From NCBI GenBank assembly GCA_964248365.1, contig CAXTYC010000005.1, forward strand, positions 96,001 through 160,000: 64,000 bases of DNA. The letters run 5' to 3'. The notes below the pieces were generated by a model, which did no database searches, was not told the DNA's origin, and saw only the letters and a list, made by a program, of their open reading frames with translations. Positions within the stretch are counted from its first letter, which is position 1. Each line of letters starts with the position of its first letter. Made by a program: the position numbers and the translations under genes. This DNA comes from an uncultured Chroococcidiopsis sp. (GTDB lineage Bacteria; Cyanobacteriota; Cyanobacteriia; Cyanobacteriales; Chroococcidiopsidaceae). Positions 12,405 to 23,231 of this stretch are shown here, in pieces.

Positions 12405-13964
12405 TTATACAGCTTGTACTCGTCCAGTCGGATTAGTAACCAAACCAAGTCTTTTAGCAATTTCGTCTGGAACAAAGCTAGGTATGCCAACTGATACTTG
12501 CAAAGCTAAGCTGCAATCAAGTACTGTCAAAAGAAAACCTCTAATTGCTTGCTTGTTCGGTATGGTATCTACCTGCGCTAAAAACTTACGCCAATTCACC
12601 TCATTATTGCCACAAAGATCTACCAGGTATAAGCTAGCAAGATATTCTGCCAAAAGATCGTAGGTAAAGCAAATTGAGTCTTGAGCCTTACCAACTGTTT
12701 GGATCATACCAAGGTGTTTTTCTAGATACTGGAGGTATGCTTGGGCTGCATTACGTCCATTTAGTGCAGTAATTGCAGCTAACACATGAGCGCGCTTAAC
12801 CGCGATTGGTTGATAGGTTTGCTTAACACATTCCCAGGCGATCGCTTTTGCATACTTTTGGACAGTTTTATGCTCGAATGCTATATTCCCAACACTAAAA
12901 TTAGAAGGTAAGCTAATTTCTTTTTTTTCGGTTTTTTGTTGTCTTAAAGTAATTTGTGTATTAATCCAAGCATCCAAAACTCTGGGGTGATGCTCTAAAA
13001 AGCTGACAAAAAGCAAAGAGCGAACTGGTAATTCATACTTGCCCAGTGAACCAGGCAAACTAATGCGTGTGTATTTTTTCAAAATATTGTTTATATTTAA
13101 TAACCATACAGGACGAAGCCACAGCATGAGCGACCATAATGATATTAGTGATAGCAAGTATATCAGGGCGCTCGCTATCAATTTGTGCTGAAACACCCAC
13201 CTATATGTTCGTTCTAAAATTCGCCCATCTTGCTCAGCTTTGAGCAATTTCAAAGACTGATTTAAAAGCGCTATTTCTGTATTTGAATTAGTTTTATTTT
13301 CTATTGCTTTAGACGCTGTTTCCAGTTGGGAAATAATTTTTTCCAATTCTGAACTTGATAATGACTGGGCATGATACTGAAAATCTACCGCAATTCTACC
13401 TAAAGCATAGGCAGCAGCTGAACTGGTTGACCGATCATTATCCTGCAAAACTGAGGTGAGAGCAGGGATTGCTGGTTGCGCTTCCTGACCCATACTACCT
13501 AAAGCCGTTGCTACAATAGAGCGAACTGACTTGTCATCGTCCTGTAATGCAACAGTAAGAGCAGGAAGTGCTATTTTAGCTCTAGCGCCCATGCTTCCTA
13601 AAGCCGTTGCCGCACTGGAGCGTACAATCGGACTTGTATCTTTTAGTGCTATGGCAAGAGCTGGAGTAGCTGACTGGGCTCCTATACCCATGCTGGCTAA
13701 AGCTGATGCCGCATTGATCTTCACTTTTTCATCGTGATGCCGCAAATTGCTTGCAAGAGTCTCAACAGCTGGCGAACCACATTTTCTTAAAGCCGCAATA
13801 GTAAAAATCCACTCCGCCGTATTGTTTAATTTTTTTATATGGCTGTTAATGTCTGCCTGGGAGCATTCTTTTGCCCAAACATTATTGTTCGGTAGATAAC
13901 AAAAGAGGCAAAATAAAGTAATTTGTAACCCTATAATTATTTTTTCTTTTTTGTTCTTATTCAT
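12405..13964 (-). CDS. Membrane-anchored HEAT/PBS-lyase repeat protein with a cytoplasmic helical domain
   Basis: Signal-like N-terminus, about four 33-aa repeats (VRSSAATALGSMG), a TM near aa 262-283, then PRVLDAW and AIAWEC motifs. Confidence 0.8.
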   Translation of the reverse strand: MNKNKKEKIIIGLQITLFCLFCYLPNNNVWAKECSQADINSHIKKLNNTAEWIFTIAALRKCGSPAVETLASNLRHHDEKVKINAASALASMGIGAQSATPALAIALKDTSPIVRSSAATALGSMGARAKIALPALTVALQDDDKSVRSIVATALGSMGQEAQPAIPALTSVLQDNDRSTSSAAAYALGRIAVDFQYHAQSLSSSELEKIISQLETASKAIENKTNSNTEIALLNQSLKLLKAEQDGRILERTYRWVFQHKLIASALIYLLSLISLWSLMLWLRPVWLLNINNILKKYTRISLPGSLGKYELPVRSLLFVSFLEHHPRVLDAWINTQITLRQQKTEKKEISLPSNFSVGNIAFEHKTVQKYAKAIAWECVKQTYQPIAVKRAHVLAAITALNGRNAAQAYLQYLEKHLGMIQTVGKAQDSICFTYDLLAEYLASLYLVDLCGNNEVNWRKFLAQVDTIPNKQAIRGFLLTVLDCSLALQVSVGIPSFVPDEIAKRLGLVTNPTGRVQAV

Positions 13965-14731: not shown

Positions 14732-16147
14732 TCAATTATCTTTCTGCTGTTTGGTAGGAAAATGGAATGTGCTGTCAGCCACTGCACGTACTTGGGATTT
14801 GAGTGCTGGTGGTGCTACTTTTTCTGCCTGCTCAAACAAAGCAGTTGCACTTTTGGTATCCCCATTAACTTTACGCAGAACTGCTTTACCAACCAAAGCT
14901 TTGAGGTGATTGTTGTCCTGAGCTAGAATTTGGTCATAGACATTTTCTGCATCAGCCGCTTTGCCCATAATTTCATACAACTGTGCTAGCTTTAAGCGCA
15001 AATCAATACGCTGAGGCTCTCGTTGAATAATTTGCTCAAGCTGCTTTGTGGCTTGTTCAAACTGCCCAGTTCGTTGTAGAGCATCGATATTTTCTATAGC
15101 ATTGTTATTATTAAACTGAGGTTGAAAAAATCGCTGGGAGCCTATGAGCAATATCAAAAGCATTGTGACTGAGCCAAGAGTTATATATAGTAATGACCTA
15201 CGTTTTAATACGTTATTACCAGGCGAAAGTAAACTACTAGCACTTTTTACTTGTACTTGGCTATCTGAACTGAAAAGATTTTGCGCTGCTGAGGAAGGCA
15301 ATTCTTGCTGTGACTGATACTTGTTTGGTAATGTACGGTTGAGCAAATTGAGGATTTGATGCTCTAAACCGGGATTATGAACTTTATTTAACTCCCAAAC
15401 TACCCAAAGCAGTGAAACAGCTGCACCTTTAGCTTCGAGCCTTGCCACATTATTATTCTGAATCAGCGGAACAAATGAATGGAAGATTTGATATTTAGCT
15501 TTTACAGCATTAAGATGTGCGGTTAATGGTTGTAGTTTTTTTGTAATTATTTGTTGGCTGACAGAGCTAGGTTCTAGTAAATCTGATTTAGTAAGTATCA
15601 ATGCTAAAGGATACTCTAAACCATTCAAATAAACTAGACTAGTGAGTGCCATTACTTGTTCAAAAATATCATCCAATACTTGAACATAAGCATCACTATG
15701 TCTTAGAGCATAGGCATCAATAAACACACAGCAACCATGAGAATTAAATACCATGTTGCGAAATTCCAGATTATGAATGTCGCAAATTTCACCAGGAATG
15801 TCATTCCAACTGAAGTTGCATAGTGTTTGTTCACCCCACAAACTTTGTTTTTTCAAGCTGAACTTAAAGTTCACAATTTTCATTGTGGGTGGCGGATATT
15901 GATTAGTCTGAACAATATAGTTAATAATTTTTTCAATATTTTCCTGTACTTGATCAGTTTGGCAATCAAACCACAATTTTTGCGGGTGTGCTGTTAGGTG
16001 ATTAGCTTGTAGTTCTACGTAGCTACCCACGATAAAAACCGTTTTACCTACACCTCTTTGACCAATGCTCAGTAAGTTAAATGTTTTTGTTTGTGCCAAA
16101 TTTTTAGAGAATACATTTATCTTTTTCTTTCCGACTCTTGCAGTCAT
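14732..16147 (-). CDS. TRAFAC-like GTPase domain + TM + TPR repeats
   Basis: G1 GQRGVGKT, G2-like YPPPT, G3 DIPGE, G4-like TKSD; TM LLYITLGSVTMLLILLIG; TPR-like C-terminus. Confidence 0.78.
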   Translation of the reverse strand: MTARVGKKKINVFSKNLAQTKTFNLLSIGQRGVGKTVFIVGSYVELQANHLTAHPQKLWFDCQTDQVQENIEKIINYIVQTNQYPPPTMKIVNFKFSLKKQSLWGEQTLCNFSWNDIPGEICDIHNLEFRNMVFNSHGCCVFIDAYALRHSDAYVQVLDDIFEQVMALTSLVYLNGLEYPLALILTKSDLLEPSSVSQQIITKKLQPLTAHLNAVKAKYQIFHSFVPLIQNNNVARLEAKGAAVSLLWVVWELNKVHNPGLEHQILNLLNRTLPNKYQSQQELPSSAAQNLFSSDSQVQVKSASSLLSPGNNVLKRRSLLYITLGSVTMLLILLIGSQRFFQPQFNNNNAIENIDALQRTGQFEQATKQLEQIIQREPQRIDLRLKLAQLYEIMGKAADAENVYDQILAQDNNHLKALVGKAVLRKVNGDTKSATALFEQAEKVAPPALKSQVRAVADSTFHFPTKQQKDN

Positions 16148-16433
16148 ACTGATTTCTTCCTGTCTACGCTATATAAGGTTAAGTTATAAAAATTTTTCGC
16201 AATTAGCAGCAGCATATCATTCAGTCATCAGCAAAAAAAGTTAAATTTATTACAAGGATATTCTGTAATTATACATAAATAGTCTCTACTGAGTAATAAA
16301 TATTGCTATAAACTACACAACTACTGAAAAACGCCTGAGAAATCTAATCCCTACTACTTGGTACTAATAAAAGTATAAAGCGAAAGTATATTGGACAACT
16401 CCTACATACAATAAGGCAATTAAGCAACAACTA

Positions 16434-18404
16434 CTAGCGCAGGGGTACAAAACCAGCCTGTTTGATCATTTGTTGTCCTTCTGAGGAAAATAGCAAATTA
16501 GCGTAGGCTATACCAGCCTGTTCATCAACACCGCCCTTTTGCCTAATAACGATAAATAAGCGTCTAGTTAGGGGATAAGAACCATTGGCAAAGGCAGTTA
16601 TATTCACACGATTTTTATTATTTATATCAAAAGGATATACAAAATACTGGTTATCTATAGTAGATAAGGGCAAAGGATTGATAGTAGCTAAGGACACAGA
16701 ATCTACAGATTTTTGCCCAATCACCTCACTGGCTGTAGCATAGCCAATTCCTCCAGGAGTTTTAGCAACGGAACGAATAGAGTCTGTTGTAGTTTCTACT
16801 TGTCGTACATTTTGGGTGAATTCGTGTCCTGCCAAGACTTTTTCTTTTATAAAATCCGCAGTTCCGCTAAATTGCGGGTTACGGGTAAAAGGAGTAATTG
16901 GCAGGTCAGAACCACCTACTTGTTTCCAGTTAGTAATTTTCCCAGTAAAAATATCTCTAATTTGATTTAAGCTTAAACCAGGAATAAGTATCTGGCGATT
17001 GACATAGAAGGCAATTCCATCGATCCCAATCGGTATCTGTTCTAAAGTAAAGCCAAGTTTTTGGGCTTGTAGGAATTCAGATTCTTTTATAGGTCGAGAA
17101 GATTGGGCAAAACTTAATTGACCTGCAAGCAACATTTTAATTCCAATTGTCGACCCATGTTTGTGTGGAATTGGGTCGGTATAAATTAATTTAAATTGCG
17201 GGTGAGCTTGCGCGATCGCTTTTACTATAGACAAAGATCGCAGTGGTGCAAAGCTAGTAGAACCTCCGTATTTAAAACTTCCCTGCGGTACATTGGGTAC
17301 ATCGGCTAATGTTTTGTAGACAACTGAATTTCTTGCCCAAGAAATTGAATCACGATAGTTTGAATTAGAAACACTCGCTAGCCGCAAACCATAAATACCA
17401 AAAGCCAAAGCTAAAACACTAGCAACAATGCCTATTAAGAGTAACAGTTGAGTTTTTTGGTGTGCCAACACAAAATCATGATTAGCACTTTTATTTAAAG
17501 TTTGACTTAAATATTCTGTGTTAGAAATATTCTTCTGGTTAGTTTTTTTTGCCCTAGATGTATAAACATCTGCTGTATTGTCTGCTACTGTTTGTCGATT
17601 AAGCCAGGTTTTAATAGGTTCCTTAGTTTTATCTTTAACAACTAAACTGCGAGTGTTAACCTTTGCCAGGTACGAGGGCTGATTTTTTTTACCTAAAACT
17701 TGTTTATAGGACTGCAATTGTTGCTTGTAGCTCTGATAAACTTGTATAGCAGTAGTTTCATCAGGTGTAGGCTTTTGGGCATCTAGATCTGTTGTATCTA
17801 GGTTCAAACCATAAATGACATAACTGGTGTATATTGAAAGAGTTGCTATTTGCTGCTCGTAGGTTCGCCCATTTAGATCGATTACCGTTTCCTGTTCATA
17901 TACGGGGACAAACATTTCTAGCAATTCCCCTTGTCGCAAGGCAAAAAAGCTGCGCTGTCGAACAGCCAGCCCAATTGCTACCCCAGCTCGAGCTGGTTGG
18001 TAACTCCACAAGTTTGGTATCACTTTAGTCTTTAAGCAGGTTGATGGGTTGTGTCGATCTATCAGTGCTACTGGACCTTTTTCCAAACAAGTAAAAATAT
18101 TAGCAAGTTGAAACTCAAACAATGGCTCTGTTAGGTAATAGCAGACGAATAATGGTACATCACTACGACCTATGTCATCTGCTCCATCGTTGTATAACCA
18201 GCCAAACAAGGTTTGCTCTGGTGATACTTGATACAAGTAAACAGCACGATATCCAGGCGGAGGGGGATTGTAAGAATCCCAATACTGAGATACACGTTGC
18301 ATGAAGGCTTGCTGTATCTCTAGAGGCACAGAGGTACTAGCAAGGGTTCTAAATCCCCTAAGTGCAAAGCTGGTGTAAACAAGTTGACCGAGAAATAAGT
18401 ACAT
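16434..18404 (-). CDS. GAP1-N2-like N-terminal domain + TM + PstS-like (PBP_like_2) binding domain
   Basis: N-terminal GQLVYTSF..GFR and DDIGR; TM LLLLIGIVASVLALAFGIYGL; C-terminal YGGSTSFAP, GS..GI, QSSRP, DGIAFYVN, SGTADF, YPLTRRLF. Confidence 0.75.
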   Translation of the reverse strand: MYLFLGQLVYTSFALRGFRTLASTSVPLEIQQAFMQRVSQYWDSYNPPPPGYRAVYLYQVSPEQTLFGWLYNDGADDIGRSDVPLFVCYYLTEPLFEFQLANIFTCLEKGPVALIDRHNPSTCLKTKVIPNLWSYQPARAGVAIGLAVRQRSFFALRQGELLEMFVPVYEQETVIDLNGRTYEQQIATLSIYTSYVIYGLNLDTTDLDAQKPTPDETTAIQVYQSYKQQLQSYKQVLGKKNQPSYLAKVNTRSLVVKDKTKEPIKTWLNRQTVADNTADVYTSRAKKTNQKNISNTEYLSQTLNKSANHDFVLAHQKTQLLLLIGIVASVLALAFGIYGLRLASVSNSNYRDSISWARNSVVYKTLADVPNVPQGSFKYGGSTSFAPLRSLSIVKAIAQAHPQFKLIYTDPIPHKHGSTIGIKMLLAGQLSFAQSSRPIKESEFLQAQKLGFTLEQIPIGIDGIAFYVNRQILIPGLSLNQIRDIFTGKITNWKQVGGSDLPITPFTRNPQFSGTADFIKEKVLAGHEFTQNVRQVETTTDSIRSVAKTPGGIGYATASEVIGQKSVDSVSLATINPLPLSTIDNQYFVYPFDINNKNRVNITAFANGSYPLTRRLFIVIRQKGGVDEQAGIAYANLLFSSEGQQMIKQAGFVPLR

Positions 18405-18533: not shown

Positions 18534-20192
18534 ATGAGTCAGATTCCTAATCCTGCCAACTGGGCTACTACTAATCGTAGTAGCAGTAACTATCCTGGTA
18601 TTAAAATTAATCGTCGTGTCAGTACATTGGTGCAAGGTTCTTTGATTTATGCCTCACAATTGATGAAGCATCAGAGATATTCTCGTCGTCGCTCTCAAGG
18701 AATCACCTTCAAGGCTAAAGCATTAGCTTTAGTAATTGCTCTAGGCGCACTGCCAATATTAGCTAGCCGCGCAAGTGCTAGCTACTTTACTAACCAATCA
18801 TTTCCAAATCCTGAAATTCAAGCTCAACAAGCTCGTATTGATAATTCAGACGATATTGTATCAGGGTCGCCCAGCGGGCTACCGTTAACCCTGGTGATTG
18901 AGACTATCGTAGCCTCATTACTGTTGGTTGGTTTACTCACCGCTTTTTTTGCCAATCGTAGTATGCGTCCAATCAAAGGAGCTAGTGAACAAGAGAAGAA
19001 ACCAAATGTAGAACCAGATGAATTTTCATCACAATTGGTAACTAGAGATAATTCTACTCTTCTGGAGACAATAAAGGTTGCACAGGACGGGGCAGACGTA
19101 GCTGAGCAGTCAAAGCTAGTGACAGAAATATCTTTGCGTATTCGTCAGGCTCAGTACTTGGAAGATTTACTCAAAACTACGGTTAAAGAATTGCGCCGCG
19201 CAATTAAAGCTGAGCGAGTATTTATCTATCGCTTCAACCCTGACTGGAGCGGGTTTGTTGTAGCAGAATCTGTGCTGCCTGGTTTGCCTTCATGCTTGAA
19301 AATAAAAGTAACTGATACTTATTTCGCTGGGTCTAATTCTGGGATAGAAGAGTATAAAAATGGTCGTATTTGTGTTAACGACGACATTTATGCAGCAAAC
19401 CTGAATGATTGTCACATTAAGTTGCTAGAGCAATTTGTCATCAAGGCACAGATGATTGCACCAATTGTAAAAAATCATGAGCTTTTCGGTTTAATAATTG
19501 CTAATCAATGCTCAGAACCCCGTGCTTGGCAGCAGCACGAAATCGATTTATTCGTGGAGTTGGCAAAGCAAGTTGGGTTTGCAATCGAGCAAGTAACTTT
19601 CCTAGAAAAACAAGAAGATTTAGCAGAAAAAGCTAATTTATTGACTGAAATTACTCTCCGCATTCGCCAAGCACAATTTTTGGAAAATTTGCTTAATACT
19701 ACGGTTAAAGAAGTGCGACGCGCATTGAAAACAGACCGAGTGTTGATCTATGGGCTTGATTCTAGTAACTGGGATGGAATTGTGGTAGCAGAATCTGTTG
19801 CTCCTGGCTGGCCCCAAACCTTGCGAGTAAGATTAAATGACCCGTGTTTCAGAAACCAGTATGTAGAAAAGTACAAAAATGGTCAGATTACAGCTATCAA
19901 TAATATTTATCGCTCCTCAGTAGAGGATTGTTACCGCAAAATGCTAGAACAATTTGCAGTGAAAGCAAATTTGGTAGCACCAATTCTTAAAAATAACGAG
20001 TTACTCGGTTTGCTAATTGCTCATCAGTGCAGTGAACCGCGAGATTGGCAACAGGATGAAATTGATTTATTTGCACAGTTGGCTATTCAGGTAGGTTTTG
20101 CCATTGATCAAGTAAGTCTGACCGCACAAATGGAAGAACAAACAGGAATTGAAAAACTTCAAGAACAATTTGAAGTTAATGAGCTTCATTAA
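18534..20192 (+). CDS. PixJ-like membrane protein with two cyanobacteriochrome GAF domains and no output domain
   Basis: Two N-terminal hydrophobic segments; GAF1 DTYF...DCH; GAF2 DPCF...DCY; stop about 25 aa after GAF2. Confidence 0.85.
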   Translation: MSQIPNPANWATTNRSSSNYPGIKINRRVSTLVQGSLIYASQLMKHQRYSRRRSQGITFKAKALALVIALGALPILASRASASYFTNQSFPNPEIQAQQARIDNSDDIVSGSPSGLPLTLVIETIVASLLLVGLLTAFFANRSMRPIKGASEQEKKPNVEPDEFSSQLVTRDNSTLLETIKVAQDGADVAEQSKLVTEISLRIRQAQYLEDLLKTTVKELRRAIKAERVFIYRFNPDWSGFVVAESVLPGLPSCLKIKVTDTYFAGSNSGIEEYKNGRICVNDDIYAANLNDCHIKLLEQFVIKAQMIAPIVKNHELFGLIIANQCSEPRAWQQHEIDLFVELAKQVGFAIEQVTFLEKQEDLAEKANLLTEITLRIRQAQFLENLLNTTVKEVRRALKTDRVLIYGLDSSNWDGIVVAESVAPGWPQTLRVRLNDPCFRNQYVEKYKNGQITAINNIYRSSVEDCYRKMLEQFAVKANLVAPILKNNELLGLLIAHQCSEPRDWQQDEIDLFAQLAIQVGFAIDQVSLTAQMEEQTGIEKLQEQFEVNELH

Positions 20193-21861: not shown

Positions 21862-22047
21862 GCTCGTTAATAAATCACTAAGCTTGCTATCCCATCTTAG
21901 CGACACTACATTCTCTCCTTTAATATTTCAAAACTCTCTCATTTGTAAATTTTATTTGCAATTTGTAAAAATCTGTTGGATTATTAATTCAAGGAGGAGA
22001 GATTCCTGCATCAAACCCTTTAATTGTCAAGAATCTCAAGTGTAGAC

Positions 22048-22569
22048 ATGACGTATACTACAGAGTCAGCTTTTACTGTTTCTTCTAACCGCTTCAACTT
22101 CAATAACCAGCTAGCTGATGCCGTGCCTGCCGCCATTGCTCAAATCAAACGCCTTAGCGTAGATGACCAACTGGCACTATTCTGGTATGTATACACAGAA
22201 ATGGGTCGTTCCATCACACCTGCTGCGCCTGGTGCTGCCCGCCTACAGTTAGCAGAAGGGTTGCTAAACTCTTTCAAGCAGATGTCTAGGGCTGAGCAAT
22301 TACAAGCGATGCGCGACTTGATTACCAACGCAAACACATCTATTAGCCGCGCCTATGGTATTCTGAGCAACAATACCAAGTTAGCTCTGTGGTATGAATT
22401 ATCAGAATTGATGGTTCAAGGCTTTGTAGTGCCAATGCCCCCTGGATACAAGCCCAATAGTGATGTAGTCGAAGTTCTAGAAGCAATCAAGCAGCTTGAT
22501 TTTGGTCAGCAAATCACTGTCCTGCGTAATTTTGTTGCCGATATGGGTGTAGATCCCTTGGCTGATTAA
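22048..22569 (+). CDS. Helical carotenoid protein (OCP N-terminal domain homologue, HCP4-like)
   Basis: DDQLALFWYVYTEMGRSITPAAPGAA, KLALWY and QQITVLRN motifs. Confidence 0.92.
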   Translation: MTYTTESAFTVSSNRFNFNNQLADAVPAAIAQIKRLSVDDQLALFWYVYTEMGRSITPAAPGAARLQLAEGLLNSFKQMSRAEQLQAMRDLITNANTSISRAYGILSNNTKLALWYELSELMVQGFVVPMPPGYKPNSDVVEVLEAIKQLDFGQQITVLRNFVADMGVDPLAD

Positions 22570-22787
22570 TCGCCTACGTGAACAAAAATAAAAGCCTGTG
22601 CGGGTTTTTATCGGATATTTGGCAGCATCAAATAACCTTAGTTAAACCCGCACAAAACACCAGTTCTACAAGGTAATTTTTCCGCTCAGACAAATCAGAA
22701 TCCCTCCACAGGATCAGGATTTGACCTGCTTTTGTGTCTATTTTAGTTGTGTCCCAGTCTGGGAGACGTTCACTAGAGGGAATAAAG

Positions 22788-23231
22788 ATGAAAGCCGCTG
22801 AATCTATGCCAGAAATCCCGTCATCTGTTGGTAGCGATACGGACGTTCAATTCACAATTGAAGGTATTGCAGAACCGACAATTCTACGTTATTTTCAAAC
22901 ATTGAACGCTGGGGAGTTTGAGGCTTGTGCAGCATTGTTTGCAGCCCATGGAGTTATGTACCCCCCATTTGAGACTGGTATAGAGGGATCTGAGGCGATC
23001 GTTGCCTATCTTCAGCAAGAAGCCCAAGGCATGAAACTCGAACCTCGTGAAGGAATTACCAAAAGCCTGGAAAATGATGATCTAGAAGTGCAAGTAGCAG
23101 GGAAAGTACAAACTTCCTGGTGTGGTGTTAACGTCTCCTGGTTGTTTGTACTCAATCAACAGCGTGAAATTTTCTCCGCTAAGATCAAGCTTTTAGCTTC
23201 TCCCCAAGAATTAATTAATCTACGACGGTAG
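22788..23231 (+). CDS. OCP C-terminal domain homologue (CTDH, NTF2-like carotenoid carrier)
   Basis: YFQTLNAGEF, PPFE, GKVQTSWCGVNVSW and KLLASPQEL motifs; directly follows the HCP gene. Confidence 0.9.
   Translation: MKAAESMPEIPSSVGSDTDVQFTIEGIAEPTILRYFQTLNAGEFEACAALFAAHGVMYPPFETGIEGSEAIVAYLQQEAQGMKLEPREGITKSLENDDLEVQVAGKVQTSWCGVNVSWLFVLNQQREIFSAKIKLLASPQELINLRR

Follow-up and report, generated by a model that had tools for sequence, protein, structure and literature searches.

Among described systems, the closest to the locus reported here are the DO-GTPase/GAP1 systems (Kaur, Burroughs, Iyer, Aravind 2020, PMC7159879; PF19993, PF20012, PF20013), which were catalogued computationally. In that paper, their TRAFAC GTPases are defined by a glutamate in Walker B; the GAP1 partner combines an N-terminal domain, followed by GAP1-M and GAP1-C, with variable C-terminal modules and is usually encoded directly downstream; membrane anchoring and fusions to extracellular ligand-binding domains are described for the GAP1-N2 systems; and the third component is GASH (N1 type) or an FNIII-repeat protein (N2 type). 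The conflict role of these systems is a prediction of the same paper, whose accessible text gives no biochemical role for GAP1. We analyzed a window of 64,000 nucleotides from an uncultured Chroococcidiopsis sp. (GCA_964248365.1, contig CAXTYC010000005.1, positions 96,001 to 160,000 of the forward strand). It contains two minus-strand genes, gene A (16434..18404, 656 amino acids) and gene B (14732..16147, 471 amino acids), separated by 286 bp, and a check of the open reading frames (ORFs) placed both where a preliminary description of this DNA, made from the letters alone, had put them. We assign a probability of about 0.5 to the reading that the pair is a membrane-bound small-GTPase signaling switch of the DO-GTPase/GAP1 kind, within which it would form a cyanobacterial branch.

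Like the described systems, the locus encodes a TRAFAC GTPase with the Walker B glutamate and a partner whose N-terminal domain, here called N1, belongs by its predicted structure to the GAP1-N1 fold class and is joined to variable C-terminal modules, with membrane anchoring and extracellular ligand-binding fusions. Unlike them, it has a single GTPase per locus that lacks a zinc ribbon, a C-terminal transmembrane (TM) segment with optional TPRs on the GTPase, an N1 domain unmatched by the GAP1-N hidden Markov models, no detected third component, and a stable synteny rather than the setting of a variable island.

By its sequence, the product of gene B belongs to the DO-GTPases and has the defining Walker B glutamate. 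Its GTPase domain (residues 22–258; 15374..16084, minus strand) matched PF19993 (DO-GTPase2) at 28.5 bits (cut-off 27) and contains the motifs G1 GQRGVGKT, G2 Thr88 (YPPPT), G3 DIPGE, and G4 TKSD. Across 76 aligned relatives, the G1 pattern Gly-x-Arg-Gly-x-Gly-Lys-Thr and the G3 Pro-Gly-Glu were invariant (76/76), the G2 threonine was present in 74 and the G4 aspartate in 75, with the G4 lysine replaced by glutamine in 21. The top ESM Atlas clusters were also DO-GTPase2 (0.96, 215 shared features), in keeping with the preliminary description, which had likened gene B to the Double-GTPases. The domain is followed by a linker, a TM helix at about residues 318–337 preceded by KRR (15137..15196, minus strand; from hydropathy), and a TPR region at about residues 350–447 (14807..15100, minus strand; TPR_19/TPR_14 above cut-off) that is missing in many relatives. 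Two further paralogues of the GTPase (52–56% identity) occur in the source genome, neither with N1 adjacent (G000:C12:12123-13508 and G000:C14:97599-98870); one has a TM helix and TPRs, and the second adjoins genes that we take to be tatC-like and lytic transglycosylase-like. A profile search of solved-structure sequences with the GTPase and N1 profiles returned nothing significant.

Gene A encodes the N1 domain (residues 1–172; 17889..18404, minus strand), a variable linker (29–56% identity among genus-mates), a TM helix at about residues 320–340 (17385..17447, minus strand; hydropathy 2.63, Kyte-Doolittle), and a PstS-like periplasmic-binding protein (PBP) domain (residues 375–642; 16479..17282, minus strand). 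Its N-terminal part bears GQLVYTSF..GFR and DDIGR. The preliminary description of two co-oriented membrane proteins with these motifs, TM helices, PstS-like part, and TPRs agrees with the ORFs, motifs, hydropathy, and Pfam matches. The TM helix is the only hydrophobic segment of gene A and also its first, and Lys/Arg residues are modestly biased across it (2.05 before vs 1.21 after, in 56 PBP-type members). Because there is no N-terminal hydrophobic segment and Lys/Arg are modestly enriched before the helix, we infer an N-in topology that places N1 in the cytoplasm.

N1 constitutes a closed, discrete family that comprises, at 50% identity, 184 clusters, 179 with E ≤ 1e-10, and its named members are cyanobacterial. 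The AlphaFold2 model (predicted local distance difference test score, pLDDT, 89) has two strands, a helix, three strands, a helix, and then a helix and a strand, a longin/TagF-like order. Among 48,161 chains compared, the best match was TagF (Z 8.9, root-mean-square deviation (rmsd) 3.6, 159 aligned residues, 11% identity), followed by a Lokiarchaeal longin (Z 7.4), C9orf72-SMCR8 (6.6), Mon1-Ccz1 (6.1), Lst4 (6.0), TRAPP (5.8), and FLCN-FNIP2 (5.7), with DENND1A also among the matches. As a control we used the GAP1-N1 domain of locus L065, which encodes GASH, two DO-GTPases, and a GAP1-N1-PNPase protein. Its model has the strand–helix order of N1 and the same two top fold matches at lower Z (5.8, 5.5), and it has an invariant arginine, Arg76, in the loop that matches the one holding Arg80 of N1. 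The top ESM neighbors of N1 were GAP1-N clusters (0.91, 168 shared features; the tool's guide is 170). At the level of sequence, N1 had no Pfam or NCBIfam match, 32 members had no Pfam GAP1-N match, and PF20013 (GAP1-N2) matched nothing in gene A, the source genome, or 201 cyanobacterial genomes; PF20012 gave one match in 251 genomes, which served as control. An hhalign comparison of N1 with 95 GAP1-N1 sequences gave a probability of 0.4%, within shuffled controls, the profiles being shallow (effective number of sequences about 4–5, with GAP1-N1 sequences on the GAP1-N side). We conclude that N1 probably works like GAP1-N and descends with it. The preliminary description had called the domain GAP1-N2-like: the model upholds the GAP1-N fold class, and we rejected filing N1 under GAP1-N2, for which PF20013 gave no match and the sequence profile comparison with GAP1-N1 was not significant.

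On a Calothrix sp. PCC 6303 plasmid, pCAL6303.02 (L066:103-5773), three DO-GTPase-like genes are interspersed with two genes that carry no annotation and had no Pfam match. By eye, the N-termini of these two contain motifs like those of N1, among them an arginine before the fifth predicted strand. This family has 25 homologues, and its profile–profile match to N1 was not significant, being no higher than shuffled or reversed controls, again with shallow profiles. The plasmid genes are possibly another uncatalogued GAP1-N-like system.

The link between N1 and the GTPase recurs across genomes. The GTPase was present in 12 of 13 N1 loci from genome contigs and lay directly upstream of N1 in 10, the order usual in DO-GTPase/GAP1 systems and reversed in the window locus. 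Single-protein queries of 401 cyanobacterial genomes detected N1 in 17 genomes, and the GTPase in 12 of these and in no others; an alignment-based search of 41 relatives found N1 in 22 and the GTPase in 14, again all N1-positive. The preliminary description had named co-occurrence in other genomes as a check on the pair, and in both surveys every GTPase-bearing genome carried N1. Among metagenome loci, N1 lay within 5 kb of the GTPase in 35 of 69 (directly downstream in 22), and in 27 of the 38 with at least 2.5 kb of upstream and 1 kb of downstream flank. Pairwise identities of N1 and the GTPase correlate (Spearman 0.82, 34 pairs), as shared ancestry alone could also produce, and the linkage persists when the N1 protein's C-terminal portion is a WD40, Roadblock, or other module. 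We conclude that the two genes form a real pair, co-occurring and co-diverging.

One N1 residue, Arg80 (codon 18165..18167, minus strand), is a candidate GTPase contact. It lies in the loop joining strands 4 and 5 (DDxGR), which we take to be the position of the arginine fingers of eukaryotic longins as well. We surveyed 78 distinct N1 domains from the loci, excluding the frameshifted L021 from alignments and count. Arg80 was retained in all 60 domains whose locus includes a GTPase, and it was gone in 1 of 6 whose genome's GTPase sits elsewhere and in 9 of 12 whose genome has no intact GTPase. In this last group, G17, W42, F67-G68-W69, P84, F86, G110, and G141 were retained in 12 of 12. This contrast between the 60 GTPase-linked domains and the 12 from genomes lacking an intact GTPase suggests that Arg80 contacts the GTPase. 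In two genomes, G133 and G137, a stop-containing GTPase remnant stands beside N1 and Arg80 has become Pro or Ser, and sister loci keep both. These decayed remnants (G133:C1:141211-141446 and G137:C42:12582-12773) lie directly upstream of intact N1-Roadblock genes. By analogy with longin GTPase-activating proteins (GAPs), Arg80 is possibly an arginine finger, as described for SMCR8 Arg147, NPRL2 Arg78, and FLCN (PMC8213707, PMC12290439, bioRxiv 10.1101/2020.04.15.042515).

Several observations weigh against a switch in which N1 acts on the GTPase through Arg80. Y45 (8/12), V38 (7/12), and G79 (6/12) likewise erode in the GTPase-less group, two of whose 12 genomes are only 73% and 84% complete. 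Arg80 loss represents only four independent events and accompanied three of five GTPase losses, and an independent-pairs sign test had too few pairs to reach significance. Gly17 is invariant at the place of the GP motif before strand 2, but it is followed by Phe (GF), whereas the eukaryotic longin GAPs have the GP motif and act as longin heterodimers (PMC8213707, PMC12290439). In TagF, the β-loop residues R84/R86 inhibit type VI secretion system (T6SS) assembly, an action not directed at a GTPase (bioRxiv 10.64898/2025.12.08.692957). Every structural match of N1 except TagF fell below Z 8, the caution line, and Foldseek of N1 against the PDB and viral models gave no match at E ≤ 0.001. As for the pairing, no N1 was visible at 34 of 69 metagenome GTPase loci, and the source genome holds three GTPases vs a single N1. 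Finally, the N1-TM-PBP architecture is kept in six near-complete genomes of two genera without such a GTPase, where it is under purifying selection (ratio of nonsynonymous to synonymous substitution rates, dN/dS, 0.18–0.32); N1 therefore has a GTPase-independent use.

With these points in view, we propose the following for the switch. Gene B would set a predicted-active TRAFAC GTPase at the inner face of the membrane, and gene A would be a receptor-like single-pass protein whose cytoplasmic N1 docks on it via the Arg80 loop and most likely stimulates GTP hydrolysis by an arginine finger. The outer domain of A (here PstS-like) would be an exchangeable module binding a small anion or surface ligand and, together with B's outer TPRs, would determine when the two proteins meet. 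Physical binding of N1 to the GTPase is, in our judgment, likely; a role for N1 as GAP, as opposed to exchange factor or effector, is more tentative and could well be wrong. The eukaryotic longin GAPs FLCN-FNIP, NPRL2-NPRL3 (GATOR1), and SMCR8-C9orf72 offer a likeness in their longin-like fold (Z 5.2–6.6, below the caution line, rmsd 4.0–4.3), small-GTPase partner, and one strongly conserved loop arginine. They differ in that no sequence similarity was found and that the N1 protein is a single-pass receptor with no DENN match and with GF for GP.

The same structural matches include proteins that act on GTPases in other ways. N1 may be a partner of the GTPase as exchange factor (GEF), effector, or docking scaffold, with an Arg80 that binds without being catalytic; we consider this rather unlikely. 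The fold matches include Mon1-Ccz1, TRAPP, and DENND1A, longins serve more often as GEFs (PMC13408092, PMC12290439), the Roadblock domain found in 41 of 289 N1 proteins could itself be a GAP, and the invariant Glu after the G3 Gly of the GTPase might serve catalysis in cis. TagF (PDB 9T0N, 6IZ8), the best match, resembles N1 in that two of its surface loops hold conserved residues, arginines near 84–86 among them. Its β-loop arginines are essential without a GTPase role or partner being described in the accessible texts; it differs from N1 in binding Hcp, and no T6SS gene was found among the scanned neighbors of the pair. However, the invariance of the arginine in 60 GTPase-linked N1 domains and in the GAP1-N1 control is what an arginine finger predicts.

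The part of gene A behind the TM helix is interchangeable. Among 289 distinct N1 domains (a sample biased toward kin of the query), the C-terminal slot held a PBP in 69, WD40 in 45, Roadblock in 41, caspase plus WD40 in 12, caspase in 10, phosphonate-binding, SepF, and LivJ-type domains in 3 each, GAF and pentapeptide in 2 each, and nothing identified in 99. These counts use a stricter caspase labeling than the slot tree of the 289 rows, which retains looser labels that over-call caspase; on that tree the slot types form clades, with 36 changes, unlabeled rows uncounted. Only 10 of the best 150 representative N1 proteins have a PBP, and the slot has at least nine identified occupants. The PBP tree indicates at least three separate captures, two of them beside free-standing PBPs of the source genome, and free PBP genes adjoin N1 or the GTPase in L053, L097, L115, and L180. 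This repertoire overlaps that of the cyanobacterial receptor-like Ser/Thr kinases, which join a constant N-terminal signaling domain to shuffled C-terminal domains that include WD40, ANF, GAF, and pentapeptide (Zhang et al. 2007, PMC2176072), with the difference that the constant domain of the N1 proteins would be a longin-like GTPase partner and not a kinase. One unnamed N1 tail and the tail of a Ser/Thr kinase in the source genome share 48% identity. We also noted a 748-residue protein (L186:1229-3475, G000:C39) that ends in PBP_like_2, with an N-terminal part kinase-like by eye and no Pfam match there.

In gene A itself, PBP_like_2 matched residues 375–642 at 118.8 bits (cut-off 27), and TIGR02136 (PstS) scored 140, below its cut-off of 206.6. 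The domain carries the motifs GSTS, GST, SSR, DGI, and R..SGT; aligned to the S-type PstS proteins of C. perfringens (PBP-1, 4Q8R) and Synechocystis (Sll0540, 9L8J), it retains the phosphate-site motifs GSTS, GS(S/T), SR, DGI, and R..SGT. It differs from them in standing behind a cytoplasmic domain and TM helix, unlinked to pstCAB. Anion binding is plausible for the PstS-type variant on these motifs, and phosphate as the input is doubtful. Against a ligand-gated switch, the motifs are partly eroded among the fusions (of 63, the SGT Ser is kept in 50, Gly in 49, and Thr in 57), and in genus-mate L168 (G403:C1) gene A's PstS-like domain is divided between frames of 536 and 125 amino acids. As merely one of at least nine occupants of an exchangeable slot, the PstS-like part does not put phosphate sensing at the center of the system, and we rejected such sensing as the defining function; the preliminary view that the system was rewired around a phosphate- or anion-binding domain is not supported as a general reading.

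A rival idea, that gene A is a tethered phosphate-binding protein for a distant Pst transporter and the GTPase gene incidental, we find scarcely credible. It would account for the intact phosphate-site motifs, for the persistence of N1-TM-PBP without the GTPase in six genomes, and for the comparable orphan PstS Sll0540, a low-affinity phosphate binder (PMC13614923). It is at odds with the N1–GTPase linkage across WD40, Roadblock, and other slots and with the pstC loci on contigs C2 and C3, each of which has its own adjacent PstS-type gene. All nine pstC-model matches in the source genome lie on contigs C2, C3, and C9, none on C5, which agrees with the preliminary statement that no pstCAB is nearby. 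A plain transporter was rejected on the location of pstC, the lack of an N-terminal export signal, and the linkage across slot types.

A bolder form of the switch would make N1, and by extension GAP1-N domains, bacterial longin-type GAPs with an arginine finger, acting in cyanobacteria as nutrient-gated "GAP receptors", an unlikely proposal as it stands. Outer phosphate-, phosphonate-, and amino acid–binding domains would gate a membrane GTPase, in a bacterial parallel to Rag/GATOR1/FLCN nutrient sensing, and ammonium transporters are frequent neighbors. In 122 loci (redundancy included), an ammonium transporter was a neighbor in 10, a peptide exporter in 7, and CheA in 2. The ammonium transporter lies near the GTPase-TPR gene, mostly divergent, in L062, L063, L081, L083, L101, L102, L107, L109, L115, and L011. 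Genes for HlyD and a C39-peptidase ABC exporter, with small peptide-like ORFs, stand directly upstream of the GTPase and N1-WD40 in L017, L048, L049, L093 (duplicates L082, L095), and L070.

Membership in the DO-GTPases raises a different reading, that the locus is a reduced GTPase-centered conflict system, anti-phage or anti-invader, as predicted by Kaur et al. 2020, with the slot as captured effector or decoy. Its range is patchy (12 of 401 genomes), and the effectors of the described systems include caspase, β-propeller, pentapeptide, and cell-division modules (PMC7159879); a motif scan found several of the fused caspase domains to be without the catalytic His. GAP1-M, GAP1-C, GASH, and FNIII had no match in the pair or in the nine flanking window genes scanned, whereas control L065 shows GASH, two DO-GTPases, and GAP1-N1; the GAP1-M/C models may be narrow, as the GAP1-N1 control was likewise unmatched by them. 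In gene A the stretch after N1 is the variable linker, with the TM helix behind it. The preliminary idea of a reduced version with one GTPase is consistent with these scans. PADLOC had no match for either protein, viral contigs held no N1 relative and plasmids a single distant GTPase relative, and slot types form clades instead of differing between sister genomes. All five genus-mates examined have queG, HAD, the two-GAF gene, A, B, and the HEAT gene in this same order, among housekeeping genes. Where computable among genus-mates, dN/dS was 0.11–0.19 for N1, 0.08–0.19 for the PBP, and 0.06–0.07 for the GTPase, and the folded domains of the locus overall gave 0.06–0.26. Because the locus is syntenic, under purifying selection, and without detected GAP1-M/C, GASH, or FNIII, the evidence favors signaling over defense, and a conflict role is quite improbable.

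Signaling of another kind could be an accessory switch for polarity or taxis that resembles MglA/MglB and takes its input from the two-GAF protein or from a chemosensory cluster. MglA/MglB likewise pairs a small GTPase with a partner of profilin-like fold (MglB, a Roadblock GAP), and some N1 proteins carry Roadblock; unlike MglA, the GTPase here is DO-GTPase2-like and membrane-anchored, and the window locus has no Roadblock domain. The two-GAF gene (18534..20192, plus strand), with no output domain detected, lies head-to-head with gene A across a 129-bp gap. Of 122 loci, 17 have a homologue, which remains next to N1 even at loci that lack the GTPase, N1-GAF fusions exist (P0150 and P0245), and CheY-CheW-MCP-CheA clusters adjoin N1 genes in L010 and L060. 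The 17 loci are mostly close kin, however, the CheA neighbors amount to 2 of 122 loci, the GTPase is present in only 12 of 401 genomes, and the ammonium-transporter and peptide-exporter neighbors point elsewhere. We regard this reading as very improbable, and the two-GAF protein as a possible accessory of the pair. A DPCF motif is present in its second GAF, and each GAF contains a later Cys, features that we take to be those of cyanobacteriochromes.

A search of published full texts, which did not extend to papers under subscription or to Kaur et al.'s source data, found no description of this N1–GTPase module. A 2026 preprint (10.64898/2026.10.19.760177) refers to unpublished observations in which profilin-longin-like domains accompany TRAFAC GTPases in other candidate anti-selfish-element systems. 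The locus contributes a variant of the PstS type, a census of the slot, and the lead on Arg80. The minimal two-gene version would provide a small soluble pair of 172 and 240 residues, and Arg80, with natural loss-of-function variants such as the N1 domains of L058/L059, makes the question of whether GAP1-N is a GAP directly testable. In eukaryotes the arginine-finger longin mechanism has so far been described for FLCN, NPRL2, and SMCR8, and Asgard longins are inferred to use it; if the present reading is true, such regulation of GTPases by longins extends beyond eukaryotes and Asgard archaea, and there is a class of bacterial receptors that signal via a GTPase instead of a kinase.

A promoter and terminator scan of the locus gave chance-level results (15 versus 16.1 and 4 versus 3.1). 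Elsewhere in the window, the gene at 12405-13964 (minus strand), syntenic in genus-mates, encodes HEAT repeats, a TM helix, and a NACHT C-terminal helical domain (NCH4), with no NACHT match. At 22024-23231 (plus strand), a gene for an orange-carotenoid-protein N-terminal domain stands next to an NTF2-like gene, a pair that corresponds to a helical carotenoid protein and a C-terminal-domain homologue.

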